The position numbers were made by a program, and so were the translations under genes. A stretch of 64,000 bases of DNA, taken from positions 2,775 through 66,774 of the forward strand of contig JACQYT010000015.1 in the NCBI GenBank assembly GCA_016208085.1, read 5' to 3'. Below are positions 3,535 to 60,313 of this stretch, in pieces (the stretch's first letter is position 1; each line of letters opens with the position of its first letter). The notes under the pieces are model-generated. The model searched no databases. It was not told where the DNA came from and worked only from the letters and a program-made list of their open reading frames with translations. Origin of the DNA: Elusimicrobiota bacterium (lineage in GTDB: Bacteria > Elusimicrobiota > Elusimicrobia > Elusimicrobiales > UBA9959).

Positions 3535-5039
3535 GCTCGTTTCTCCCGCGATCTTTCAAGCAGTTCTTTCGCCGCGTCAAAGACCTTGTCCGGCGTTATC
3601 AGCCGCATGCACAGAAAATGCCCGCGGGGGCAGGAGGCGGAGCCGTGCAGCGCGCAGGGGCGGCAGGCCAGGTCCGCCTCAAGCACCGCGTTCCGTTCTC
3701 CGTAAGGGAAAAACCCCAGCTCTTTTGTGGTTGGCCCGAAGACGGCGGCGACCGGCACGCCGAAAGCCACGGCTATATGCATGGGGCCGGAATCATTGGT
3801 TATAAAAATTTTCAGCCTTTTAACGAGAGCCATCAACTCCTCTATTCCGGTTTTACCCGTCAGGTTAAGGCAGGTTCCAGGCCCGGCGGCGGCCTCTATT
3901 TGGGCGTTCCACGCGGCCTCGTCTTTTGCGCCCACCAGCAGGACGCGGGCGCCGTACGCGGCGGACAGCTTTTTTATAAGCCGGGCCCAATGCCGCGCCG
4001 GCCAGCGCTTGGTGGGCCAGACCGAGCCGGGGTTGGCGCCGATAAAAATGTCGGTCCCCGCTCCCTTCAGAGCGGCGGAGCTCTCGCGAAGCGGCGGGAA
4101 CCGGGTCTGCGCCGGGCCCGGGGTCAGCGGGAGCAGCAGGGTCAGATTACGTTCCAGGTCGTGTATCAGCCAGGAGAACGGGACCCTGTGCGTGAAAAAA
4201 AAACTCCCGGCGCTGGAGTCAAAACCGATGCGCACCGGTATCCCGGCAAGCCGGGCCAGCAGCGCGCTCCTGAACGACCGGTGCGGAACTATCGCGATGT
4301 CGAATTTTCTTCTCTTCAGTTCGCCGGCCAGCCTGCGGAACTCAGGCCAGAACGAGCCGGCCTCCCTTTTATTGTCCGTTATTATTTCGGCGGCAAGGCC
4401 GCAGGAGGCGAATAGCGCGGCCGTGTCGGGACGCGCGACCACGGTAATATCGGAGTCCGGCGCGGCTTTCCTTATTTTTGCAAGCAGCGGCAGCGTCAGG
4501 ACGCAGTCCCCCAGGAACGCGGTCTGCAGCAGGCAGATCCGCTTGCGACCTTGCGCGGAGACGGCCGGACCGGGCTCAAGGACCCAATCGCCCAGCAACG
4601 GCTCGCGGCAGACGACGGGCACGCCTATCTTCTCAAGGACCTGGAGGTACCGCTCAAGGGTGCGCTTTTCAAGCGCCGGGTTCGGCACCCTGAAATTGAC
4701 GAAGAGACGGCGCGCCAAAGAATCCTTTTTGTAGCGCGCTTTGACAGGTATTGCGGAACCCGCGCACAGCAGCAGGCTGCGGAGGTTGGCGTGGAGGTCC
4801 AGCAGGATATCGTACCGGCCGCGCTTTATCTCCCGAAGGGCTGAAAAAATCCCGGTGAAAGGCAGCGCCGCGGACACGAACGGGTTTTTCCGGACGGCGG
4901 CGGCGAACTGCGGCTTGACCAGCATGGTTATGCGCGCGGCGGGCCAGCGCTCCTTGAGATTCCTCAGAACCGGGGCCGTAAGTATGATGTCGCCCAGGGA
5001 GGACAGTCTTATTATAAGGATATCGGGAGCCGTTTCCAT
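3531..5039 (-). CDS. Glycosyltransferase family 9 with an extra N-terminal half-domain
   Basis: Two GT9 N-terminal signatures in one 502-aa ORF: ILIIRLSSLGDIILTAPVLRNLKERWP and ICLLQTAFLGDCVLTLPLLAKIRKAAP. C-terminal NDSGPMHIAVAFG. Confidence 0.8.
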   Translation of the reverse strand: METAPDILIIRLSSLGDIILTAPVLRNLKERWPAARITMLVKPQFAAAVRKNPFVSAALPFTGIFSALREIKRGRYDILLDLHANLRSLLLCAGSAIPVKARYKKDSLARRLFVNFRVPNPALEKRTLERYLQVLEKIGVPVVCREPLLGDWVLEPGPAVSAQGRKRICLLQTAFLGDCVLTLPLLAKIRKAAPDSDITVVARPDTAALFASCGLAAEIITDNKREAGSFWPEFRRLAGELKRRKFDIAIVPHRSFRSALLARLAGIPVRIGFDSSAGSFFFTHRVPFSWLIHDLERNLTLLLPLTPGPAQTRFPPLRESSAALKGAGTDIFIGANPGSVWPTKRWPARHWARLIKKLSAAYGARVLLVGAKDEAAWNAQIEAAAGPGTCLNLTGKTGIEELMALVKRLKIFITNDSGPMHIAVAFGVPVAAVFGPTTKELGFFPYGERNAVLEADLACRPCALHGSASCPRGHFLCMRLITPDKVFDAAKELLERSREKRA

Positions 5040-14622: not shown

Positions 14623-14693
14623 ACCCCGTTGCAGCGGCGGATGTAAATCCGCCTGAAGGGCGATTCACATCGCCCGCTACAGGGCGGGGTAAC
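14593..14693 (-). repeat. Partial composite element X (copy 4) with a REP in its CCCCG/CGGGG stem
   Basis: aaaaattttcgcggcaaaaatttttaccataccccg [REP 14629-14682] ggcggggtaac. Same frame as copies at 38040-38068 and 57510-57531. Confidence 0.65.
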
Positions 14694-14704
14694 GGAGTTA
14701 GCCT

Positions 14705-15499
14705 TCATCCTTTCTCCAGTAGCTCTTCGGCTTTCAGGCCGGTTTCATTCAGGACTTTTTCAAGCTCTGCCGCGCTTTCTTCAAGGCCGGCCGCCTGCGG
14801 GAGATAAAACGGCGCCGAATAGGCGACGACGGCCCTGCCGAACGGAAGAGGTATCTGAAACCGGTCCCAGGAGCGGGTCAGGATTTTATTGGACAGGGCG
14901 CCGGCGATGGCTATTATAGGCAGCCCCGTTTTCCGGGCCAGATAAACCGCGCCTTTCTGCACTTTGCGGGCCGGGCCCTTCGGACCGTCCGGCGTGATTG
15001 CCAGCGTTTGGCCGTCACGGGCGCATTGGATAAGCTGGATCAGGGAACGCAATCCGCCGGAACTGGTGGAGCCGCGCACCAGGACATAATTGAAACGCTC
15101 AAGCATCTGCGCCGCATATTCCCCGTCCCCGCTTTTGCTTGCCAGCGCGGTTATGCCCCGGCCGCGGTGGGCGTAAATGAGGAAGGCCTGCTGACAGTGC
15201 CAGATGACGTATATGACCTGCCCCGCCCTTTGGCCCGTTCGGAAAAAGGGCGGGGCCTGCCCAACGTCCGCAGGCTCGTTCGCGCCTTGAGGCGGGGGGA
15301 GGGTCCCAGCGGGCGGAGGGAGGGGCGCGCCGTAGAACTTGATGGAAGTGGTAAACCCCACCAGCCTCAGATAGAAACACCCGGCCAGGGCCGCCAGGCG
15401 GTGAATAAACCCGAAAAATTTAGTTGAATTTTCCGGGAAGGCTAAAGGATTAGGGATAAAGGCTAAGGGGCGAAAAAACCGTTGTATCTTTTCCTTCAT
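14705..15499 (-). CDS. DUF374-type lysophospholipid acyltransferase family protein
   Basis: LAITPDGPKGPARKV motif; sits next to waaA as is usual for DUF374. N-terminus MKEKIQRFFRPLAFIPNPLAF is encoded by a class B element. Confidence 0.7.
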   Translation of the reverse strand: MKEKIQRFFRPLAFIPNPLAFPENSTKFFGFIHRLAALAGCFYLRLVGFTTSIKFYGAPLPPPAGTLPPPQGANEPADVGQAPPFFRTGQRAGQVIYVIWHCQQAFLIYAHRGRGITALASKSGDGEYAAQMLERFNYVLVRGSTSSGGLRSLIQLIQCARDGQTLAITPDGPKGPARKVQKGAVYLARKTGLPIIAIAGALSNKILTRSWDRFQIPLPFGRAVVAYSAPFYLPQAAGLEESAAELEKVLNETGLKAEELLEKG

Positions 15500-15519
15500 C
15501 CTTTATCCTTTAGCCTTTC
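15435..15519 (-). repeat. Class B word hairpin (AAGGATAAAGGCT family) carrying the start codon of 14705..15499
   Basis: Arms 15435-15470 and 15489-15519. On the gene strand: gaaaggctaaaggataaaggATGaaggaaaag...ccttagcctttatccctaatcctttagcc. Confidence 0.75.
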
Positions 15520-16138: not shown

Positions 16139-16256
16139 ATTTCCGTTTCTTTCCTGTATCGGCGAGGCTAAATCTCACCGGCGTTCACTGGTAAACCATA
16201 TAGCTATAGTCGTTTGACAGGCGAACGGTTACCCGAAAATTGCGGCAATTTTCGGG

Positions 16257-17147
16257 TTACTTCCTCCGTCTCTCCCACTGGTACACCAGCGGGGTGGCTA
16301 TGGCGATGGTGGAATAAGTCCCGCAAATACTGCCCACCAGCATGGCGAACGCGAAGTTGTTGATGACGTCGCCGCCGAATATGAAAAGCGTCAGCACCAC
16401 GCCGAGGACCGTAGCGTTGGTGATAAGGGTCCGGGAGAGCGTTTCGTTGACGCTGACGTTGACCAGCTCGCCGAGGAGCATTTTGGGAAACTTTTTTATA
16501 TTCTCGCGCATCCGGTCGAAGATGACTATCGTGTCGTTGATGGAGTAACCGGCGATGGTTAAAAGCGCCGCCACTACCACCAGGTCCACTTCCCGGTTGG
16601 TTATTGACATGGCGCCGAAAGTTACCCACACGTCATGCAGCAGCGCGATAACGCCCGCCGCGCCCCAGACGGGGTTAGAGAACCGAAACGCGACGTAAAT
16701 GATGATGCCGAACAGGGAAAGTATTATGGCGAACAGGGCTTTTTTGCTCAGGTCCCTGCCGACCACCGGCCCGACATAATCCCTTTTTTCTTCCGAAAAA
16801 GTATTGCCCCGGGTATTGGCCTTAAGACCCTGGAGGAGCTTATCGGCTGTCTCATTGACGTTTTCCTGCTTGCCTTTGACCTTTAAGGCGAAGGCATTGC
16901 GGCCGGTAAAGGTCTGAATGCCGGCTTCTATATTGGCGGACTTTACGGCTTGCCTGACCTGGGCGATGGTTATGGGCTTGTCGAACTTCACCTGGAGAAG
17001 CGTTCCGCCGGTGAAATCAAGGCCGAGGTTCGCGCCTTTGACCGCCACGGAAGCGGCGCCCAGGGCTAGGGCCAAGCCTGAAATGGCGAAAAATATATGC
17101 CGCCTGGCTATGAAATTGATGTTTGTCTTTCCGATGAGGATGATCAT
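16257..17147 (-). CDS. secF: Protein translocase subunit SecF
   Basis: Six-TM SecF pattern: NFIARRHIFFAISGLAL...FDRMRENIKK. Confidence 0.9.
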   Translation of the reverse strand: MIILIGKTNINFIARRHIFFAISGLALALGAASVAVKGANLGLDFTGGTLLQVKFDKPITIAQVRQAVKSANIEAGIQTFTGRNAFALKVKGKQENVNETADKLLQGLKANTRGNTFSEEKRDYVGPVVGRDLSKKALFAIILSLFGIIIYVAFRFSNPVWGAAGVIALLHDVWVTFGAMSITNREVDLVVVAALLTIAGYSINDTIVIFDRMRENIKKFPKMLLGELVNVSVNETLSRTLITNATVLGVVLTLFIFGGDVINNFAFAMLVGSICGTYSTIAIATPLVYQWERRRK

Positions 17148-19084: not shown

Positions 19085-20304
<1,220 letters not shown>

Positions 20305-21362: not shown

Positions 21363-22550
21363 TTATTTTACATCGTCAATCGTAACGCCCGGATAATAGT
21401 GTTTGAGTATCCTTTTATAGTTTTTGCCGTTCAGAGCCATCTGTCTGGCGCCGTCCTGGCACATGCCCACGCCGTGCCCCCAGCCTTTGCCCTTAAACTC
21501 ATAGCCGCCTCTCAAGCGCGCCACGCGGGTGATGAAAGTGCTTCTTATGTCGGAGGCGCCGAAATGCCTGCGCAGCGCGGAAGCCGCGACCGTAACGGAG
21601 CCGGCGTCGGTCGCAAACCGGAAAGCCCGCGTCCGGCCGGAGCGGTCTTTTTTATGTATCCGCGCGCCCTTAATCTTGAGCGCCGTGGAACCGTTTTTCT
21701 GTATAAACGCCAGCAGGTCCCCGGCCGCGACGTAGAAATTCCAGCGATAATGCGGCGAATTGGAGCAGAAAGGGTCTCTGATGCCGGCCAGGGGTTTAAT
21801 GCTGTCTCCGCTCCACGCGGCGCCGGCGCTTGCCGTATGCCCGCCGCAGCAGGCGTGAAAGAAAGCGGTTATCAGTTTCCCTTTATAGGCGAGCACCGAA
21901 CCCCTGGTGGAATTCACGGCTTTAATGATCTTTGAGTTTACGAGGGAAGCTCCGTTATAGACCTGCATCTCCGCGCCGTCCGTGAGGTCGTAATCTTTTT
22001 TCGGATTTATGTTCTTAAGGGCGTAGGTGCGCGACGCGATTGCCTGGGCCTTAAGCGCTTCAAGGGGCCAATCCGGGCTCATCTCCACTCCCAGCACTCC
22101 GTAGAGATAATCCTCTACGGAAAGCTGTTCTATGACCTCCAGCTTTTCGTCCGCCGCGGTTTTAATGAAGAGCTCGCCTTTATAGAATCGGCCGTTGAGG
22201 TTCACTTTCCCGCCGCCGTCGGGGGGCATAAGCTTTACGGGCGACTCAAGCGTAGCGCCCGCAAGCGCAAGCCGTGAAGGGCTGATATACTTTATCTCGT
22301 ATGAAGACCTTTCAAGCAGCATGTATTTCTGACCGGTCCTGACTTCTATCGCATACACCCTGCTTGAGGTCTTGAGCGTGAAGCGCGGCGTATTCCTGGC
22401 GATGGCCACCCTTATGACGGCGCCGTTCCCGTCGCCGGAATCCGCAGCCGCGCCATGGAGGAAAAACAGTAAAAGAAGCAGGGATAAAGGATTAAGGATA
22501 AAGGCTAAAGGGCGGAAAAAATCTTTTTGTTTTCGTGTTTTTTCCTTCAT
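21363..22550 (-). CDS. SpoIID/LytB domain protein
   Basis: FFHACCGGHTASAGAAW and GHGVGMCQDGA. The signal peptide is partly encoded by a class B element. Confidence 0.8.
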   Translation of the reverse strand: MKEKTRKQKDFFRPLAFILNPLSLLLLLFFLHGAAADSGDGNGAVIRVAIARNTPRFTLKTSSRVYAIEVRTGQKYMLLERSSYEIKYISPSRLALAGATLESPVKLMPPDGGGKVNLNGRFYKGELFIKTAADEKLEVIEQLSVEDYLYGVLGVEMSPDWPLEALKAQAIASRTYALKNINPKKDYDLTDGAEMQVYNGASLVNSKIIKAVNSTRGSVLAYKGKLITAFFHACCGGHTASAGAAWSGDSIKPLAGIRDPFCSNSPHYRWNFYVAAGDLLAFIQKNGSTALKIKGARIHKKDRSGRTRAFRFATDAGSVTVAASALRRHFGASDIRSTFITRVARLRGGYEFKGKGWGHGVGMCQDGARQMALNGKNYKRILKHYYPGVTIDDVK

Positions 22551-22570
22551 CCCTTAGCCTTTAGCCTTCC
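22481..22570 (-). repeat. Class B word hairpin containing the ruvB stop and the SpoIID-like start
   Basis: Arms 22481-22512 and 22538-22570. ruvB TAA at 22561-22563 and ATG at 22548-22550 both lie inside the purine arm. Confidence 0.75.
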
Positions 22571-23580
22571 GACGGGGGCGGCTTCAGCCCGAGGTGCAGG
22601 CAGGCTTTCGGGGTCAGCGTCCTGCCCCGGGCGGTGCGCTGAAGAAAGCCGCTCTGCATGAGGTAAGGCTCTATTACGTCGGTAAGGGTGTCTATCTCTT
22701 CGCTGACGCTTACGGCGAGCGTTTCCAGGCCCACCGGCCCGCCGCCGAATTTCTCGGCAATGGTCAGCAAAAGCCTGCGGTCAAGCTTATCAAGGCCTTC
22801 CGGGTCTATTTCAAGGGAATCCATGGCGTTGACCGTAACCTCCCGCGTAATGACGCCGTCGGCACGCACCTGCGCAAAGTCGCGGACCCGCTTAAGGAGG
22901 CGGTTAGCTATCCGGGGCGTGCCGCGGGAGCGCCTGGCTATATGGCTTAAGCCCTCCGGCCTGGTTTCGGCTTTAAGTATCCGGGCGGACCGTGCCAGTA
23001 TTTTTTCTATATCGGCCTGCGAGTAAAAGCCGAGGTCAAACACTATTCCGAAGCGGTCCCTTAACGGCCCGGTCAGGAGTCCGCTTCTGGTGGTGGCGCC
23101 CACCAGCGTAAAACGCGGCACCGCCAGTTTAAGCGTGGTGGCGCCGGGCCCGGCGCCGGTGCTTATAAAGAACAAAAAGTCCTCCATTACCGGGTATAAG
23201 GCCTCTTCCACCGCGGCGTTAAGGCGGTGTATCTCGTCTATAAAAAGGATGTCGCCTTCGGCCAGTTCCGTGGTGAGCATGGCGGCCAGGTCGCCGGGCT
23301 TGGTCAGAACCGGCCCCGAAGTGATCTTAATGTTTACGCCCATTTCCACGGCCAGGATATGCGCAAGCGTGGTTTTTCCCAGGCCGGGGGGGGAATAGAA
23401 AAGGCAGTGGTCAAGCGGTTCCTTTCTGCCTTTAGCCGCGTCTATAAAAACGCGCAGGTTGTCTTTGAGTTTGTCCTGTCCCACGAATTCTCCGAGATCC
23501 CTGGGCCTCAGGCGCAGGTCCGCGTATTTAAGCTCTTCGTCCGTGGGCTTTGAAGATAAAAACTCGTTATTCGGGGCCAT
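22561..23580 (-). CDS. ruvB: Holliday junction helicase RuvB
   Basis: Walker [22 protein letters not shown]. Confidence 0.95.
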
Positions 23581-24773: not shown

Positions 24774-24780
24774 ACGTGGA

Positions 24781-24874
24781 TAGTCTAGAGTCTAAAGTCG
24801 AGAGTCTAGAGTGTAGAGTTTAAAGCACATTTCTCTTTGATCTTTAGACTTTAGACTCTCCACTTTAGACTTTA
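24781..24874 (-). repeat. Class C word hairpin (TAGACTTTAGACT family) between yebC and ruvC
   Basis: Arms 24781-24823 and 24841-24874. The yebC TAA is the first triplet of one arm. The loop holds an ATG opening a 12-codon mini-ORF. Confidence 0.65.
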
Positions 24875-25624
24875 CTCCAGCTTGGCCAGAATAGAATCCG
24901 GAATGTTGAAGTTGGAGTGCACTTTCTGCACGTCTTCGTGGTCTTCCAGGGCGGTCATCAGGTTTACGACAGCTTGAGCCTTGTCTTCGCCCACGTTGAC
25001 CTCGTTCTCGGCCAGCATCGCGAGTTCCGCCTGGACAATCGGGATCTTACGCTCCTGGAGTTTTTTCCTGACGGTTTCAAAATCCGCGGGAGCGGTGATG
25101 ATCTCATACTCATCGGAGCCGTCCGGCGACTTAAAATCCTCGGCTCCGGCATCAAGGGCAAGCGTCATCAGCTCATCTTCCCTGTCGCCGGCTTTTTTGA
25201 CGGTAATATAGCCTTTCGGTTTGAACATCCAGGCCACGCAGCCGGTGCCGCCCAGGTTCCCGCCGGTGACCTCAAAGATCTTGCGTATTTCGCTGAATAC
25301 CCTGTTCCTGTTATCGGTGGTGACTTCCACCAGGACCGCGATGCCGCCGGGACCGTAGCCCTCGTACATTATCTCCTCATAGCTCACGCCGGGTAACTGG
25401 CCCGTGCCGCGCATGATGGCGCGCTTCACGTTGTCCACGGGCATATTGGCGTCCCTGGCGTCTTCCATGGCCTTGCGCAGGCGCGGATTCTCTTCCGGCT
25501 TGCCGCCGCCTGTTTTGGCGGCTACGGTTATTTCTTTTATGATTTTGGTGAATACTTTGCCTTTTTTCGCGTCGGTAACGGCTTTTTTGTGCTTTATTCC
25601 TGCCCAGTGAGAATGTCCACCCAT
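24872..25624 (-). CDS. yebC: YebC/PmpR family transcriptional regulator
   Basis: MGGHSHWAGIKHKKAVTDAKKGKVFTK; start at M39 of ORF 24872..25738. Confidence 0.9.
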   Translation of the reverse strand: MGGHSHWAGIKHKKAVTDAKKGKVFTKIIKEITVAAKTGGGKPEENPRLRKAMEDARDANMPVDNVKRAIMRGTGQLPGVSYEEIMYEGYGPGGIAVLVEVTTDNRNRVFSEIRKIFEVTGGNLGGTGCVAWMFKPKGYITVKKAGDREDELMTLALDAGAEDFKSPDGSDEYEIITAPADFETVRKKLQERKIPIVQAELAMLAENEVNVGEDKAQAVVNLMTALEDHEDVQKVHSNFNIPDSILAKLE

Positions 25625-25713
25625 AGTCGCTCCTTGTAATATCCGCCCGAATTTGCCCGGCCGGACGCATACGGGAACTGAACTTAAATTAGGCCCCCTT
25701 CGGGGGCAACTTT

Positions 25714-25765
25714 TGTAGCGGTGCGATTTATCGCACAAATTCGTCGCATGAATGCGACCGCTACA
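25714..25765. repeat. REP element (TGTAGCGG family, divergent inner hairpins)
   Basis: tgtagcggtgcgatttatcgcac...gtcgcatgaatgcgaccgctaca. Confidence 0.7.
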
Positions 25766-25878
25766 GCAAACATTGAAATTCCTAAGCCTTAAATTCTATA
25801 ATAATGCAAGCTCTTTCACAAGAAAGAGTTATCTGTACTATCTCGCTTTCACGCTTTCTTGCTATCTTGCTGTTGTTT

Positions 25879-25952
25879 GCCCCCTTAGCTCAACCGGATA
25901 GAGCGGCTGCCTTCGGAGCAGTAGGTTGCAGGTTCGACTCCTGCAGGGGGCA
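25879..25952 (+). tRNA. tRNA-Arg (anticodon TCG)
   Basis: Hand-folded cloverleaf. Acceptor GCCCCCT/AGGGGGC; D arm GCTC...GAGC; anticodon stem GCTGC/GCAGT with loop CTTCGGA; T arm GCAGG-TTCGACT-CCTGC; discriminator A. No encoded CCA. Confidence 0.85.
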
Positions 25953-26013
25953 CGCAACATTTATGTAATTAATCCTTAATGTTACTGAAAAATCTATATT
26001 AGATGCTATATCC

Positions 26014-27120
26014 ATGCAGACGAACGCGCTAGCTGTGGTTCTTTTTATGGCAGGGCGCCTTGGCGCCCAGGAACTATCCAATCATGACCTGGGGCGCAAG
26101 GCGCTTGAAACAGCGGTGACGTATACCAAAAGCGCGGATTCCGATGTCCGAACTATGGCGGCCGAGGTCCTGGGCCAGACAGGCAATAAGTCCGCCGCGG
26201 GTCTCCTGAAAAAACTGCTCGCGGATCCGGACAAGCATACGCGCATCGCGGCGGCCGAGTCGCTGTGGAAACTGGGAGACACGGGCGGCTTTCAGGCCAT
26301 TTACGCCATTATCAACGATGTGCCGGCGCAGGGCCCCGTGGGAAACACCGCGCTGGTCGAGCTTAAAATAATTTCCCAGAACAAAATACGCGAGCATGCT
26401 ATAGAGGCGTACGCGCGGATAAAAGGGGAAAAAGCTTCGGAGCTTCTTTTCAAGCTTAAGAACGATACTTACGGTTCCATCCGGGATGTGGCAGCCAGGG
26501 AACTTTCCGGGCTTGGTTACTCCGACGAGATGGCGCAGTTCCTGGACGCGCTGGAAAGCGACGACGAAGCGATAAGGTATGCGAGCGTAAAAGTGTTCGC
26601 TAAGATCTGCAATTCCGACGCCGTGGAACCGCTTGGCGCCCTGCTTATGAAGGAGATGTCCAGCCGCGTCAGAATTGCGGCGCTTGACGCCCTGAAATGC
26701 ATGAGCGCCAGGAAGAATGCGCTGCCCCAACTGCTGAAGCTCGCGGATGACGCGAACCCCTCCATCCAATTCAAAGCGGTAGGGGTTTTAAGCGCCATAC
26801 GGGATAAAAAGGCTTTTGAAAAATTGGCGGGAATATACGGCGCGACGACCGACTTGAATCTGAAAGTCGCGACGCTCAAAGGGCTTATGAGCGGAGGCCG
26901 GGCGCCGGACAAGGACCTGCTTGACCTCGCTTTCGCCTCCGCCAATCCGGACGTTAAAACGGAAGCCCTTAAAGTGCTGGAAAACATGGCTGAAGCCGAG
27001 GTTAAGCCATACCTGCGGGATGCTTTAAGCGATTCCAGCGTCAATGTGAGACTGGCCGCGGCCCAGCAGATCCTGAAACGGTTCGCCAAGCAACAGGCGC
27101 AAAGCAGCGGCGCAAAGTGA
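26014..27120 (+). CDS. HEAT-repeat protein (PBS-lyase-type repeats)
   Basis: Repeated D..VR..AA..LG...A...L..LL.D units throughout the 368-aa ORF. Confidence 0.7.
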   Translation: MQTNALAVVLFMAGRLGAQELSNHDLGRKALETAVTYTKSADSDVRTMAAEVLGQTGNKSAAGLLKKLLADPDKHTRIAAAESLWKLGDTGGFQAIYAIINDVPAQGPVGNTALVELKIISQNKIREHAIEAYARIKGEKASELLFKLKNDTYGSIRDVAARELSGLGYSDEMAQFLDALESDDEAIRYASVKVFAKICNSDAVEPLGALLMKEMSSRVRIAALDALKCMSARKNALPQLLKLADDANPSIQFKAVGVLSAIRDKKAFEKLAGIYGATTDLNLKVATLKGLMSGGRAPDKDLLDLAFASANPDVKTEALKVLENMAEAEVKPYLRDALSDSSVNVRLAAAQQILKRFAKQQAQSSGAK

Positions 27121-37745: not shown

Positions 37746-37788
37746 AAATGTATAATCTTTAAGTGAAAGTTCAGGGGCATGACAATAG

Positions 37789-38068
37789 AAATAAAATGTT
37801 GTCCGACAACATTTTATCCTACCCGGCACGGGGTTTTCTTCAACACCTTGCCGGGGTGGAGCGAAGCGACACAATTCAACTGTATCCAACAGGATGAGGG
37901 GAAAATTTCTTTCCCCCTCAAACTCCTCCTTGCCCCAAGGTTACCCCGCCCGAAGAAAGGCTAAAGGATAAAGGCTGAAGGATGAAGGAAAAACAAAGAG
38001 ATTATTCCGGCCTTTAGCCTTTATCCCTGATCCTTTATCCTTTCTTTAGGGCGGGGTATGGTAAAAAT
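37789..38068 (+). repeat. Composite modular element X, copy 1
   Basis: 280 bp shared with 57190-57531. Modules: aaaatgttgtc-cga-caacatttt hairpin; cccggcacggggttttcttca; gaggggaaa-atttc-tttccccctc; and a CCCCGCCC/GGGCGGGG stem enclosing a class B hairpin. Confidence 0.8.
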
Positions 38069-38127
38069 AATTTTCAAATTTATATGTCTTTCTAATCACC
38101 GCGGCGGCAGTTATAACCGCGGTTCTT

Positions 38128-40363: not shown

Positions 40364-40809
40364 CTGGAGCCGAGCGGGTTGGCCCAGAGCGGGAGCTGCG
40401 TGGCCTTCTCAATTTTGCGGACCTTCAGGTCGCCGGTAAGCTCCTGGATGAACACCTCCAGGCTGAAAACCCTGGTGCCGGCCATCAGGTGGCCCCCGTA
40501 GGCTTTCCCTTCCAGATCGCCGAGCATGAGATGGGCGTGGACCATGGGTTTGTCGTCGAACAGGCTGACGTTGCCGGAAAGCGATAATACCTCAAGTTCC
40601 TTTTCTAGATTTATCTTCATATATTTTTTCGCCTTCTGGTCATAGACGCCGAAGGTGGCCCGTTCAACCGACCCTATGGCGGTTATCAGGCCGCAGCGGA
40701 CCTGGTGATGATGACAGAAATACTGCACGGCCTGCAGCAGGTCTTCGCCTTTTTGAATGCTGAACATGAAAGTCCGGCCGGTTAGATAGGGTTTTTCCTG
40801 GATCTGCAT
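40360..40809 (-). CDS. PPC/DUF296 domain DNA-binding protein
   Basis: ITAIGSVERATFGVYD...HAHLMLGDLEGKAYGGHL pattern. Confidence 0.7.
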   Translation of the reverse strand: MQIQEKPYLTGRTFMFSIQKGEDLLQAVQYFCHHHQVRCGLITAIGSVERATFGVYDQKAKKYMKINLEKELEVLSLSGNVSLFDDKPMVHAHLMLGDLEGKAYGGHLMAGTRVFSLEVFIQELTGDLKVRKIEKATQLPLWANPLGSR

Positions 40810-40829
40810 TATAGGGTGACCTCCATATT

Positions 40830-40925
40830 AAGGATATAAGGATTAGGGATAAAGGCTAAAGGACGGAACAATCTCTTTGTTTTCCTGTGTTTTTTCCTTC
40901 ATCCTTCAGCCTTTATCCTTTAGCC
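40830..40925 (-). repeat. Class B word hairpin encoding the C-terminus of 40906..41229 and a 19-codon mini-ORF
   Basis: On the gene strand: gaaaaggctaaaggataaaggcTGAaggATGaaggaaaaaacacag...ccctaa. Confidence 0.7.
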
Positions 40926-41229
40926 TTTTCTCCATATATTGCGCATAATCTTTTACGGCGTCAAACTGGGCGCGCTCGTCAAGGCCGGCTTCTTTAAGCG
41001 CCTCCGCAGCCTTGCCGCTGCCCGGGTAGCGGCCGTTTTTAAACGGGTGAAGCGTCCGGGCGATGCCCTCCGCGGACCTGACCCAGTAATACATGGTGGG
41101 CAGGGTAAAATCGGGTACCCTGTACTGGCTGCTCATTATGACGTCCGAGACATCGTAATAACCGGCCCGGCGCTGGTTCAAAGCGAATCTGGCGGGCTTT
41201 ACGCCGTTAAAAAGGGTCTGGTTTCCCAT
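40906..41229 (-). CDS. Hypothetical protein
   Basis: 107-aa ORF; the last seven codons KRLKDKG lie in the class B element. Confidence 0.5.
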   Translation of the reverse strand: MGNQTLFNGVKPARFALNQRRAGYYDVSDVIMSSQYRVPDFTLPTMYYWVRSAEGIARTLHPFKNGRYPGSGKAAEALKEAGLDERAQFDAVKDYAQYMEKRLKDKG

Positions 41230-42333: not shown

Positions 42334-42407
42334 CAGGGTATAGGGGTTAGGGTAGAGGGTAGAGTTATAAGGAACTCCTTACCCTAAACCCTCTACCCTA
42401 TACCCTT
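42334..42407 (+). repeat. Class A word hairpin after fba
   Basis: G-arm cagggtataggggttagggtagagggtagag; loop ttataaggaactcc; C-arm ttaccctaaaccctctaccctataccctt. Confidence 0.7.
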
Positions 42408-57189: not shown

Positions 57190-57531
57190 AAATAAAATGT
57201 TGTCCGACAACATTTTATCTTACCCGGCACGGGGTTTTCTTCAACACCTTGCCGGGGTGGAGCGAAGCGACACAATTCAACTGTATCCAACAGGATGAGG
57301 GGGAAATTTCTTTCCCCCTCAAGGCTATGCCGGTAATTGTAGCGGGCGATGTGAATCGCCCTTCAAGCGGATTTACATCCGCCGCTACATTTTTGCCCCA
57401 AGGTTACCCCGCCCGAAGAAAGGCTAAAGGATAAAGGCTGAAGGATGAAGGAAAAACAAAGAGATTATTCCGGCCTTTAGCCTTTATCCCTGATCCTTTA
57501 TCCTTTCTTTAGGGCGGGGTATGGTAAAAAT
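57190..57531 (+). repeat. Composite modular element X, copy 2 (with nested REP)
   Basis: Same as 37789-38068, except that 8 nt (actcctcc) are replaced by about 72 nt containing REP 57338-57389. Confidence 0.8.
57338..57389. repeat. REP element (TGTAGCGG family) nested in element X
   Basis: tgtagcgggcgatgtgaatcgccc ttcaa gcggatttacatccgccgctaca. Confidence 0.8.
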
Positions 57532-57654
57532 TTTTAATCAAGAACGAATTACGCGAATGTATTCGCGACATTCGTGTTTATAATTTGTTTACCTTTTGTT
57601 GAGGACTTTGTTACCGGCGGCGCTGTATACTATCAATAACTGATAAGGAATACA

Positions 57655-59064
57655 ATGCCACCGGTAATTATGCTTTTGTTGTTAATCACACAACTCGTTC
57701 TGAGCGGAATAGCGGCTGCCGCCGTTTCCCAGGGCGGCGAATATTCCCTTTACCCCCGGATATTTTCTAACGGCGCGGCAATTGACAGGACTTCGGGAGA
57801 ATACTCCGCCTCCTTCGCCATAGCCCAGCAGAATCCGACAGGCGAGCCTGCCGAAGACGAATATTCGGCCGCGCTGGGTTTCTACAGCGGGCTCGGAAGC
57901 GGAGCGCCTCCGCAGATACTGAACCTGGGCAGCGCAATCGCCGGTGCGCTGGGGCCTGAGGTTTCCGGCTTCAAGCTTGGAGTCCCCCGGTTGTCCACCG
58001 TTTCACTGCAGTTCGACGAAGATATGCTGAGCGAGTCTTTTGCCTCCGCCATTAAGCTTACCGCGATACGGGACAGGAACGGCCGGCAGATAATTTCGGA
58101 ACTGCCGGCCGGCTATTCCTACGATCCGCAAAACAGGACGCTGGAGATCTGGCCCATAAGCGGGTCATGGAGCGGAAATACCTTCCACGAACTCACCATC
58201 TCAACTTCGGTCATCGACTACCAGGGGCTTTCCCTGGCGCAGGCCCTGGAGTTCCGTTTTGTGACGATGCTTGAAGCCGGCCAGGATAACACCGTGGTTT
58301 CCCCCGACGGCGCGGCCAGGATAATCCTGCCCGCGGGAGCGCTCCAAAAAGACGCTTACCTGGTATTCAACAGTTCGCCGTCGGAAAGTCCGCGCCGGGT
58401 GGACCCGGGGAAGCTCCAGGCGGCCACCGCGAAGCTCCAGAGCAGCAGGGGGAAATTCTATCTGCCCTACGCTTTCAACGAAATAAACGCCTACGATGCC
58501 CAAAACAGCCTTCTCTCCGGCAATTTTGCCAAACCCGGCCGTTTAACGCTTTTCTATCCGGATGCGGATTCGGACGGCCTTGTGGATTCGGCTGCGACGC
58601 CGATAAAGCAGAAGAACAGTTCGCTTTACTGGCTTGACGAACCAAGCGCTATGTGGGTGAAGCTGCCGGATTCCGGCGTGAACGCCGTCGACAGGCAGGT
58701 CACGGCAAGCGTGCCTCATTTTACGGTCTTTGCGGCAGTCGGCAGCGCGGAGTTTTCGGCACAGGACGCGTTCGCCTACCCGGTGCCTTTCCGCCCGCAC
58801 GGGCCTAACGCCGGCACGGGGGCGGGGCAAACCGGCGCCGAGTCCTCCGGCATCACTTTTATGAATCTCCCTTCGGAGGCTGAAATTTCCGTTTTCAACG
58901 CCAGGGGCGAGCTGGTCTGGAAAGGCCGGGACTCCGACGGGGACGGCAAGCATGTCTGGAACGTGAAGAACGACGACGGGTTTGCGGCCGCAAGCGGCGT
59001 TTATTTTTACGTTGTCCGCAGCGCGCGGGATTCAAAGACCGGTAAGCTGGTGATAATAAGATAG
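57655..59064 (+). CDS. Secreted Ig-like (SbsA/Big_5-type) protein with T9SS-type CTD
   Basis: Signal peptide; GEYS repeats; VSLQFDEDMLSESFASAIKL Ig-like domain. C-terminus AYPVPFRP...ISVFNARGELVWKG...ASGVYFYVV...GKLVIIR. Confidence 0.75.
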   Translation: MPPVIMLLLLITQLVLSGIAAAAVSQGGEYSLYPRIFSNGAAIDRTSGEYSASFAIAQQNPTGEPAEDEYSAALGFYSGLGSGAPPQILNLGSAIAGALGPEVSGFKLGVPRLSTVSLQFDEDMLSESFASAIKLTAIRDRNGRQIISELPAGYSYDPQNRTLEIWPISGSWSGNTFHELTISTSVIDYQGLSLAQALEFRFVTMLEAGQDNTVVSPDGAARIILPAGALQKDAYLVFNSSPSESPRRVDPGKLQAATAKLQSSRGKFYLPYAFNEINAYDAQNSLLSGNFAKPGRLTLFYPDADSDGLVDSAATPIKQKNSSLYWLDEPSAMWVKLPDSGVNAVDRQVTASVPHFTVFAAVGSAEFSAQDAFAYPVPFRPHGPNAGTGAGQTGAESSGITFMNLPSEAEISVFNARGELVWKGRDSDGDGKHVWNVKNDDGFAAASGVYFYVVRSARDSKTGKLVIIR

Positions 59065-59262
59065 GGTAGAGGGTAGAGGGTTTAGGGTAGAGGGTTTAGG
59101 GTAGAGGGGGGAAAAGACGGACGAAGATTAGAGCAGACGAAGAAAAATTGTAAAGCGGAACAGGGCGAATTTTATGAATACTTTAACGCATAACAGAAAC
59201 CGCGCTTTTATCCCGGCATTTCTGTTTGCCTGCACCCTATCCCCTATCCCCTCTACCCTAAC
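59062..59262 (+). repeat. Class A word hairpin spanning the CTD-protein stop and the PorV-like start
   Basis: Seven GGG tracts at 59064-59110, starting in the TAG stop. The loop holds ATG 59174. C-arm 59233-59262 encodes CTLSPIPSTLTP. Confidence 0.7.
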
Positions 59263-60313
59263 CCCTGTTTTCGCCGGCAGTTCCGCCGGGGCCACGGCAA
59301 TGAGCTTTCTGCGCATGGACCCCGCCGCCCACCAGACCGGCATGGGGGGGGTGGGAGTGGGGCTTTTTGAGAATCTTCAGAACATGTCCTACAACCCCGC
59401 CCTGCTCGGGATGCTGAAGCACAACGAGCTGGTCTTCTCGCACGCCAACTGGCTGGTTGATTCCAGGTTCCAGGACGTGGCGTTCGCTTTCGCCACCCGC
59501 TCTAAAGGCACTTTCGGCGTGAGATATAAAACTTTCAGCTACGGCTCAATAGATTCCTACGACGCCGCGGGCGGGAAGCTGGCTTCTTTCAAGGCGCGCG
59601 ATTCCCTTATTTCCGCAAGCTGGGGCGCGCAGCTTGAGCGCGTGCACGGCATCTGCGCCGGGATAACGATACGCCAGGCGACGCAGGACCTGTCTTTCGT
59701 TTCCGCCGGCGCCGTCATGGCCGACGCCGGTTTTTCCATGCTCCCTTTCAAAGAGCGGCTCAACGGAGCTTTTTCCTTCGGCGCGGCGGCTAAAAACCTG
59801 GGGCAAGAAGTAAAGTTTGACCGGGAAAGCGAATACTTGCCGTCCACGCTGGATTTCGGCTTCGGCTGGACGGGGTTGCTGGAAAGGCTGTCCGCCGGGG
59901 TGGACGTTCACATGCCGAAAGCGCAGGGTATCTATTACAGCGCCGGCGCCCAGTACAGGGCGGCCGACATGCTGGACCTGCGGGCCGGCTTTGAAACCGG
60001 CCAGGAACAGGGCTCGGGTCTGCGCCTGGGAGCGGGCGTCAACTTCGGAGCCTGGCAGCTGGATTACGCCTGGCTCCCGTTCGGACTTCTCGGCGACACC
60101 CACCACGCGAGCCTGCTGTACAGATTCGGGGGGCCGGCCGAATCCGCTTATGCGGCGGGTCTGAAGGCGCTGCGCAAGACGAGGTACGCCGAGGCGGTGC
60201 TTTATTTCGCAACGGCGCTTGAAGAGGACCCGACGATGGACAAAGCGGCGCTGAAACTGAAAGCTGCGCACAAACTGCTTCAGGAACAAAAGGAGCTGAA
60301 AGAGGCGCCATGA
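59174..60313 (+). CDS. PorV/PorQ-like outer-membrane beta-barrel with C-terminal TPR-like helix pair
   Basis: Paralog of 30814..31998 (IPAFLF...PVFAG signal peptide, HQTGMGGVGVG...YNPALLG). C-terminus AGLKALRKTRYAEAVLYFATALEEDP. Confidence 0.6.
   Translation: MNTLTHNRNRAFIPAFLFACTLSPIPSTLTPVFAGSSAGATAMSFLRMDPAAHQTGMGGVGVGLFENLQNMSYNPALLGMLKHNELVFSHANWLVDSRFQDVAFAFATRSKGTFGVRYKTFSYGSIDSYDAAGGKLASFKARDSLISASWGAQLERVHGICAGITIRQATQDLSFVSAGAVMADAGFSMLPFKERLNGAFSFGAAAKNLGQEVKFDRESEYLPSTLDFGFGWTGLLERLSAGVDVHMPKAQGIYYSAGAQYRAADMLDLRAGFETGQEQGSGLRLGAGVNFGAWQLDYAWLPFGLLGDTHHASLLYRFGGPAESAYAAGLKALRKTRYAEAVLYFATALEEDPTMDKAALKLKAAHKLLQEQKELKEAP

Follow-up and report, generated by a model that had tools for sequence, protein, structure and literature searches.

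A dispersed palindromic repeat with heptamer arms at gene junctions of Elusimicrobia, and its probable co-option as a gene start

Introduction

Short tandemly repeated repetitive (STRR) heptamers form a hairpin between hupS and hupL in cyanobacteria, for which a role in transcript stability or translational coupling has been proposed (PMC2670836). In marine Beggiatoaceae and Cyanobacteria, direct repeats of the heptamer TAACTGA have been suggested to affect translation (PMC4679880). Besides, the REPINs, of the REP (repetitive extragenic palindromic) group, are described as non-autonomous mobile DNA (PMC3116915). Here, we describe a hairpin repeat with heptamer arms that occurs in five copies in a 64,000-nt stretch of DNA (contig JACQYT010000015.1; the whole stretch analysed is called the window) from an uncultured groundwater bacterium of the Elusimicrobia. 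The best matches of a SpoIID-like protein encoded in the window are in metagenome-assembled genomes (MAGs) of Elusimicrobia, and DNA of the window was found in groundwater metagenome runs. One copy lies at the junction of ruvB and the spoIID gene, and the element had originally been predicted to be a mobile or recurrent translational gate, i.e., a hairpin that masks the initiation of translation.

The element shares with the STRR sequences its tandem 7-nt intergenic units and its hairpins between co-transcribed genes. It differs from them in phylum and unit, in its dispersed and inverted arrays around a conserved, non-repetitive loop, in its presence/absence polymorphism and in one putative target duplication. 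With the TAACTGA repeats it has in common stop-containing heptamer arrays near gene ends or starts, although those are direct, form no hairpin and mostly end 1 nt before starts, while the Elusimicrobia arrays are inverted and mostly found at gene 3' ends. The REP, REPIN and bacterial interspersed mosaic element (BIME) sequences of Proteobacteria are likewise high-copy extragenic palindromes, with long hairpins often right after stop codons and mosaics with small hairpins. However, the element described here lacks GTAG/CTAC ends (its arms begin with (G/A)AAGG), is made of heptamer arrays instead of REP units of 20–25 nt, and shows an 8-bp duplication at one copy. To our knowledge, mobilisation of the IS200/IS605 type makes no target duplication, and we know of no REP-associated tyrosine transposase (RAYT) gene for this Elusimicrobia lineage.

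Miniature inverted-repeat transposable elements (MITEs), e.g., the Correia elements of Neisseria, are reportedly also ~100–150 nt long with terminal inverted repeats, lie at gene junctions, are co-transcribed and donate expression signals. Here, on the other hand, the terminal repeats consist of internally repetitive heptamers, a putative target duplication is seen at one copy only, and no parent insertion sequence is known from the 64 kb and the scattered loci of relatives. The Rickettsia palindromic elements (RPE), reportedly described by Ogata et al. in 2000, are said to be palindromic repeats within coding genes that are translated in otherwise conserved proteins. They are inserted in frame internally and have no sequence relationship with the Elusimicrobia element, which replaces gene ends, giving new N-termini to two genes and new C-terminal tails to at least three. 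Finally, thermometers and riboregulators that mask the Shine–Dalgarno (SD) sequence (hsp17, ROSE, fourU) resemble two of the copies in that SD-like words and an AUG are enclosed in a hairpin, but the element is several-fold more stable, has no consistent position in 5' untranslated regions, lacks covariation and folds alike on either strand. Membership of the STRR, REP/REPIN/BIME, MITE or RPE families is thus not demonstrable, and in the literature searched we found no description of heptamer-armed dispersed hairpins for Elusimicrobia.

Results and discussion

Architecture of the element in the window

The five copies lie where the original prediction had placed them, on the same strands. Three are on the minus strand, i.e., c15 (15437–15519), c22 (22481–22570) and c40 (40829–40929), and two on the plus strand, c37 (37941–38058) and c57 (57404–57521). 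Each is ~90–110 nt long with a semi-conserved loop between arms of degenerate tandem heptamers, (A/G)AAGG(C/A)T and its complement; the arms measure 26–38 nt and are 71–89% complementary, and an alignment of 26 copies bears out the terminal inverted repeats. The 16-mer CCTTTAGCCTTTATCC, allowing at most 2 mismatches, has 18 matches in the window against 0.09 expected from 100 shuffles, and all of them fall inside the five copies. Tandem Repeats Finder (TRF) reported a period of 7 at every copy and at ~10 other sites, period-7 arrays being the commonest tandem repeats of the window.

Two properties of the heptamer matter for what follows. The ATG of the element, retained in all five window copies, is the junction ...GGAT-GAAGG... 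between two heptamers. Besides, direct reading of the consensus purine arm shows that it closes all three frames within 21 nt (GAA GGC TAA; AAG GCT AAA GGA TAA; AGG CTA AAG GAT AAA GGC TGA), because every heptamer holds TAA or TGA and a period of 7 equals 1 modulo 3. The cost to an open reading frame (ORF) that runs into the arm is therefore no more than a few codons.

Copies c37 and c57 both lie between genes; their sequences are identical, which implies recent copying. The heptamer hairpin of c37 (37956–38047) sits within an outer palindrome, TTACCCCGCCC/GGGCGGGGTA, and its ATG (37982–37984) opens an ORF of 11 codons. Both copies are part of a composite repeat of ~290 nt (~37785–38075 and ~57215–57535; 99% identical). 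This composite starts with the hairpin AAAATGTTGTCCGACAACATTTT, carries a 62-nt extra insert in the c57 version, lies upstream of a histidine kinase gene and of the gene of a secreted Big_5/CHU_C protein, and has no match in Rfam.

A derived junction between ruvB and spoIID

On its sense (minus) strand, copy c22 reads GGAAGGCTAAAGGCTAAGGGATGAAGGAAAAAA - loop - CCCTTTAGCCTTTATCCTTAATCCTTTATCCC from 22570 to 22481, with the purine arm at ~22570–22538, the loop at ~22537–22513 and the pyrimidine arm at 22512–22481. As predicted, the stop codon of ruvB (ORF 22561–23580, minus strand) lies in the purine arm, where the TAA at 22563–22561 belongs to the first heptamer, GAAGGCTAA. Ten nucleotides separate this stop from the AUG of the element, with which the next gene begins. 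This gene encodes a SpoIID/LytB-like protein of 395 aa (PF08486; 21363–22550, minus strand), and its ATG (22550–22548) and first ~23 codons are provided by the element, the pyrimidine arm being read as FFRPLAFILNPLSL. The N-terminus, MKEKTRKQKDFFRPLAFILNPLSLLLLLFFLHGAAA followed by DSG, has a charged n-region, a hydrophobic core and an AXA site, and the element ATG is the sole in-frame ATG, GTG or TTG between the ruvB stop and the mature SpoIID region (AADSGDG...).

The closest relative, GCA_018829985.1 (JAHJSU01), allows a comparison with the same junction over a 21-kb syntenic block (L122; ~87% DNA identity) with the gene order yebC-ruvC-ruvA-ruvB-spoIID-queA-tgt-yajC-secDF-orf-DUF374-kdtA. 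There, ruvB and spoIID are joined by a plain TAATG overlap without the element; RuvB ends in ...PHPQEKLF* and SpoIID begins with MLRFLVSVLL..., while RuvB of the window ends in ...PPPSEG*. Homologues of SpoIID are nearly all ~378 aa long and start with M[LIK]R/K..., so the window protein is 17 aa longer; its remainder is intact and 84% identical to the ortholog. The empty site in the relative, together with the length and start of the homologues, shows that the state in the window is derived. No empty allele was found in the Logan contigs of DNA sequencing runs.

An older insertion at the start of the DUF374 gene

Copy c15 contains the start codon (15499–15497) of a DUF374, lysophospholipid-acyltransferase-like gene (PF04028; 264 aa; 14705–15499, minus strand), with the N-terminus MKEKIQRFFRPLAFIPNPLAF. 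It adjoins the mini-hairpin CCCGGAAAATTCAACTAAATTTTTCGGG (15409–15436, minus strand), of a flank type that follows 12 of 28 family copies and that is translated here as PENSTKFFG, so that the first ~31 residues of DUF374 come from the element plus the mini-hairpin. The TGA (15520–15518) of an upstream 206-aa ORF abuts the 5' edge of c15, 18 nt before the AUG. The observation made for ruvB, that an upstream gene stops in or at the purine arm, thus extends to c15 and also to c40 (see below). The element ATG is the sole canonical start before the conserved N-terminal helix of DUF374, and the frame stays open across 93 nt in both genomes.

The copy is orthologous in the relative (L122, 17450–17541), with five substitutions and one whole heptamer different. 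More distant DUF374 homologues lack the element and begin ~9 residues before the HRLAA motif; the insertion is therefore older than that at ruvB/spoIID and shared by the two lineages. Since orthologous copies are one heptamer apart, slippage must be active as well.

Taken together, these comparisons uphold the prediction that in two copies the AUG starts a real gene and the pyrimidine arm is translated, as the element ATG is the sole credible start in both cases. Both captures look real, as there is no other canonical start and homologues lack the extension. Judging from sequence, the element ATG is most likely the start codon of both SpoIID and DUF374. When the 35-aa DUF374 N-terminus was searched exhaustively with HMMER against 1.84 billion protein representatives, the sole matches were a 46-aa ORF and an unrelated repeat protein, i.e., no protein family with the element-encoded peptide. 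A word-index search with a synthetic 58-aa element peptide gave the same 46-aa ORF only, though this search also missed the proteins of the window itself.

Two further features of this gene were noted. A solo two-heptamer remnant, GAAAGGATGAAGGCTAA (14697–14716, minus strand), contains the DUF374 stop codon TGA (14707–14705). Residues ~74–110 form a Pro/Ala/Gly-rich insertion of ~35 residues (PLPPPAGTLPPPQGANEPADVGQAPPFFRTGQRAG) that is missing in most homologues and variable among the three closest.

Copy c40 and the turnover of copies

The purine arm of c40 contains the TGA (40908–40906, minus strand) of an upstream 107-aa ORF. Its ATG (40902–40900) opens an ORF of 19 codons only, and the PCC-domain gene that follows has a GGAGG of its own before its start at 40809. 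Copy c40 is flanked by an 8-bp direct repeat, ATATGGAG (left 40930–40937, right 40821–40828; minus strand), a putative target-site duplication. It is the longest word common to the two flanks, and a permutation null gives P = 0.01 for 8 nt or more. Deleting c40 and one repeat leaves an ORF that ends in ...YMEVTL* and overlaps, as TAATG, the ATG at 40809, i.e., an empty junction of the type found at the ruvB/spoIID site of the relative. At c22, c37 and c57 no target duplication is visible. A 9-bp repeat at c15 is ambiguous and was rejected as such a duplication; its motif is found at three places in the vicinity, and no sensible DUF374 start results when the empty site is reconstructed.

In the relative, the ortholog of c40 (L155) has the same left junction and carries in its first heptamer a nested MITE of 113 nt (3635–3747), whose 13-bp terminal repeats (GTAACTACTCAGG) are perfect and which has an 8-bp duplication of its own (GAGAAAAG). 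A sequence related to this MITE also occurs downstream of another copy (L162). Shorter inserts are nested in further copies of the relative, both in the arms (L130, L146, L161) and in the loops (L051 at 1855–1900, L139, L153); they include a hairpin of ~40 nt, CCCGCCAAACAG..GGCGGGTCCGCC..GGCGG, and a 47-nt insert opening with CCGTCTGATGAGCATAGCTCC. Many copies are flanked by mini-hairpins (CCGAAAATTGC..GCAATTTTCGG, CCCGAAAAATTCA..GAATTTTTCGGG, CCCGTCCGCCT..AGGCGGACGGG), resulting in BIME-like mosaics. Most heptamer hairpins of the related genome are flanked by a mini-hairpin that also stands in the window as a lone palindrome, GTTACCCGAAAATTGC/GCAATTTTCGGGTAAC (16228–16260), right after secF.

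Presence/absence is seen in the other direction as well. Two copies beside a tRNA gene of the relative (L122; 6309 and ~6680) are missing from the window. Around the tRNA of the window (25879–25952; flanks 25620–26080), the downstream spacer is wholly different from that of the relative, with different repeat elements in each. The view of the original prediction that the cassette is recurrent and apparently mobile therefore stands, given its presence/absence at orthologous sites, the 8-bp repeat at c40 and the occurrence of the family in several genomes.

Distribution of the family and position relative to genes

The family is present in at least three Elusimicrobia genomes, i.e., the one studied here, JAHJSU01/Ga0180009 and GWA2_56_46. 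A metagenome scan with an exact 20-mer of loop end plus arm recovered 43 loci, most from the JAHJSU population and some from GWA2_56_46 contigs, and ~30–38 unique copies were analysable after removal of duplicates. Twenty-six copies of typical length, at unlinked loci, align end to end, including the non-repetitive loop (...AAAAACACTGGAAAACAAAGAGATTATTCCGCC...); the shared loop therefore points to common descent and not to independent origin. Logan contigs stop at the element, and words of the arm are ~40–50x as deep as those of the flanks, in agreement with tens of copies.

A broader scan with the permissive pattern GGMTAAAGGMTAAAGG gave at least 120 loci. They are spread over many phyla and are for the most part simple AAAGGCT/AAAGGAT tandem arrays, with a related Elusimicrobia MAG among the sources. 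Hairpins of AAAGGNT-type heptamers also occur in MAGs of Chloroflexota, Terriglobia, Thermoanaerobaculia, Gemmatimonadales, Cyanobacteria and Desulfuromonas (L007, L011, L012, L041, L058, L060, L068). A scan of viral contigs gave no match.

The family is associated above all with the 3' ends of genes. In ~22 of 32 copies, a gene stop is located within or at an arm. Sense-strand ORFs of at least 150 codons terminate within or at the 5' arm of 18 of 31 copies and, in addition, of c22, and 9 of 31 copies have the end of an antisense ORF in their 3' arm. Several copies span precisely the space that separates two convergent genes (e.g., L145). The ATG, on the other hand, opens a real gene in only 2 of ~32 unique copies (c15 and c22). 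It is present in 13 of the 26 aligned copies, the others having ATA, ATT, CTA or CTG in this column, and where present elsewhere it opens merely 3–36 codons. Besides c15 with its ortholog and c22, the one exception is an ORF of 112 codons (L162), which we rejected as a gene on the ground that it crosses a TTGACT-N17-TATAAT promoter. In 12 further copies, a same-strand gene with its own start follows 30–200 nt downstream. A genome-wide census had been proposed as a test of the translational gate, and the copies sampled here are not enriched at the starts of genes. The view that the family serves as a translational gate is not supported; the ATG is a polymorphic by-product of the heptamer.

Folding of the element

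As RNA, the window copies fold with -34 to -63 kcal/mol, at z-scores of -2.9 to -7.5 relative to shuffled sequences, the value for c37 being -63.5 kcal/mol. Over 29 copies the mean is -36.7 kcal/mol for the sense and -37.4 kcal/mol for the antisense strand (Wilcoxon p = 0.48). RNAalifold found a compensatory change in none of 20 consensus pairs, variable heptamer positions giving mismatches instead, and the element has no match in Rfam, where only the tRNA at 25879–25952 reaches the gathering threshold. Equal folding of the strands, no covariation and no Rfam match are the signature of a DNA palindrome family and not of a strand-specific regulatory RNA.

The hairpins of c15 and c22, at -34 to -39 kcal/mol, enclose both the AUG and the SD-like AAGG words. 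The predicted masking of initiation holds in so far as these signals would be enclosed in a stable hairpin on free mRNA, but a terminating ribosome would already have opened that hairpin. Stabilities from -28 to -63 kcal/mol are far above those of tunable SD-masking hairpins. An RNA thermometer was rejected on hairpin stability, and a CsrA sponge, considered for the repeated GGA words, was dropped, the GGA words being base-paired. Among the other genes of the window, many that are well supported (ruvB, ruvA, queA, fba and others) have no recognisable SD sequence in the 30 nt upstream.

Origin and possible role of the element

We consider it likely that the element belongs with the MITE/REP kind of repeat, being palindromic, dispersed and non-autonomous, that its heptamer arms are STRR-like, and that it is occasionally co-opted. 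It would spread and turn over in the short intergenic spaces of one Elusimicrobia lineage, and two features may let it survive at gene junctions. One is the closure of all frames by the purine arm within ~21 nt, and the other a G variant of one heptamer, which gives AAGG-N7-ATG followed by an open frame through the pyrimidine arm. Two insertions would have overwritten the 5' end of the downstream gene, with the element ATG co-opted as start, at ruvB/spoIID in the window's own lineage and at DUF374 in the common ancestor with the closest relative. We hypothesize that the captured genes most likely initiate by termination-reinitiation coupling. As the upstream gene stops 10–18 nt ahead of the AUG, within or at the 5' arm, the terminating ribosome would already have melted the hairpin; both this distance and the ancestral junction, itself a coupled TAATG, favour coupling.

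Several points weigh against this explanation. A clean target duplication is found in one copy only (c40, of 28 searched), and no transposase or RAYT has been tied to the element within the 64 kb of the genome, whose ORFs were not screened for RAYT. The event at ruvB/spoIID is a replacement and no simple insertion; ~35 nt were lost, i.e., the final ruvB codons and the first six spoIID codons, and ~95 nt gained. In DUF374, the element part is 95% identical between the two genomes vs ~84% for the surrounding alignment block, which hints at some constraint (coding, structure or conversion) beyond selfish DNA alone. Besides, slippage can also extend heptamer arms where they stand, so that transposition may be unnecessary for part of the pattern.

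The best surviving alternative, which we regard as possible rather than probable, is a functional 3'-end or intercistronic hairpin that would stabilise the upstream mRNA, pause or terminate transcription, or tune the ratio of expression across the junction, a role compatible with spread by transposition. The very stable hairpins and the location of a gene stop within or at an arm of roughly two thirds of the copies, convergent-gap fillers such as L145 included, agree with it, as does the function proposed for STRR hairpins in transcript stability or translational coupling (PMC2670836). However, no U-tract regularly follows the stem, the strands are symmetric, covariation is absent, and the orthologous junctions of the closest relative work without the element.

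A purely in-place origin, with local growth by heptamer slippage and template switching within the palindrome but no movement between loci, seems to us improbable. It would account for the abundance of period-7 arrays and of several distinct heptamer-hairpin families in the window, the orthologous copies that differ by one heptamer, the mostly simple tandem arrays in many phyla and the nesting of hairpins in different outer palindromes. It does not account for a loop and an order of heptamer variants common to at least 26 unlinked loci in three genomes, for the putative 8-bp target duplication at c40, or for the identity of c37 and c57. We are just as doubtful that the heptamer hairpins are operon junction cassettes retained by selection, each combining a stop in all frames with a weak SD, an AUG and an open frame, i.e., a mobile stop-restart adaptor that shapes gene boundaries in Elusimicrobia. 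If this were true, genes would be re-joined with translational coupling, and N-terminal segments (e.g., the charged n-region of a signal peptide) and C-terminal tails would be donated repeatedly.

A dedicated translational gate, in which masking of the SD and AUG lets temperature, a factor or upstream translation control the downstream gene, appears very unlikely: while the c15 and c22 hairpins do enclose these signals, their genes have no other canonical start and all five window copies keep the ATG, it opens a gene in just two copies and is missing from half of those aligned, most copies lie at gene 3' ends and some between convergent genes, both strands fold alike without compensatory changes and with stabilities well past tunable riboregulators, many window genes do without an obvious SD, SD-like words are intrinsic to the heptamer, and the element peptide is not recurrent among protein representatives.

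Other structured repeats of the window

The window holds further repeats, among them sister families with the architecture of the element (AGGGTAT, TAGAGTC/TAAAGTC and CTAGTGT arms). A second heptamer-hairpin family has AGGGTAT/AGGGTAG arms and a conserved loop, AAGGAACTCCTT; it occurs at 2076–2204, 42335–42406, 59063–59108 with 59235–59266, and in the relative (L051, 3028–3120). Its copy at 42335 begins 5 nt past the fba stop, its array at 59063 begins on the stop codon of a 469-aa secreted protein, and the first ATG of a glycosyltransferase-9 ORF (2147, minus strand) lies in the loop of the 2076–2204 copy. A third heptamer hairpin (24776–24874; TAGAGTC/TAAAGTC arms, 83% complementary) takes up the entire space from the yebC stop to the ruvC start, and sequence comparison suggests that it is conserved in the relative (L122). 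A perfect 17-bp hairpin of CTAGTGT-type units, CTAGTGTAGTGTCCCGT/ACGGGACACTACACTAG (19085–19123), lies directly downstream of tgt, and other heptamer repeats stand upstream of genes (TAGACTT before ruvB, ACAGNGG before tgt).

A small element of another kind, with an outer stem GTAGCGG..CCGCTRC around two inner hairpins and REP-like GTAG/CTAC ends, is found at 14690–14625 (minus strand), 57311–57372 and 25715–25770. At 14690–14625 it occupies the loop of the outer palindrome TTACCCCGCCC..(G)GGCGGGGTATGGTAAAAAT, which hosts the heptamer hairpin in c37 and c57, and here the outer palindrome provides the first ATG of the kdtA ORF (14622).

Implications

These results reveal no new regulatory principle. 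They do carry a warning for annotation, as starts, stops and small ORFs inside such elements are mostly by-products of the repeat, and the repeats break short-read assemblies. Overall, Elusimicrobia joins the few bacteria with intergenic DNA dominated by heptamer-based structured repeats, and the two junctions described here provide well-controlled cases, with an empty or outgroup state for comparison, in which a repeat gives one gene a new C-terminus and its downstream neighbour a new N-terminus, with this neighbour remaining intact.

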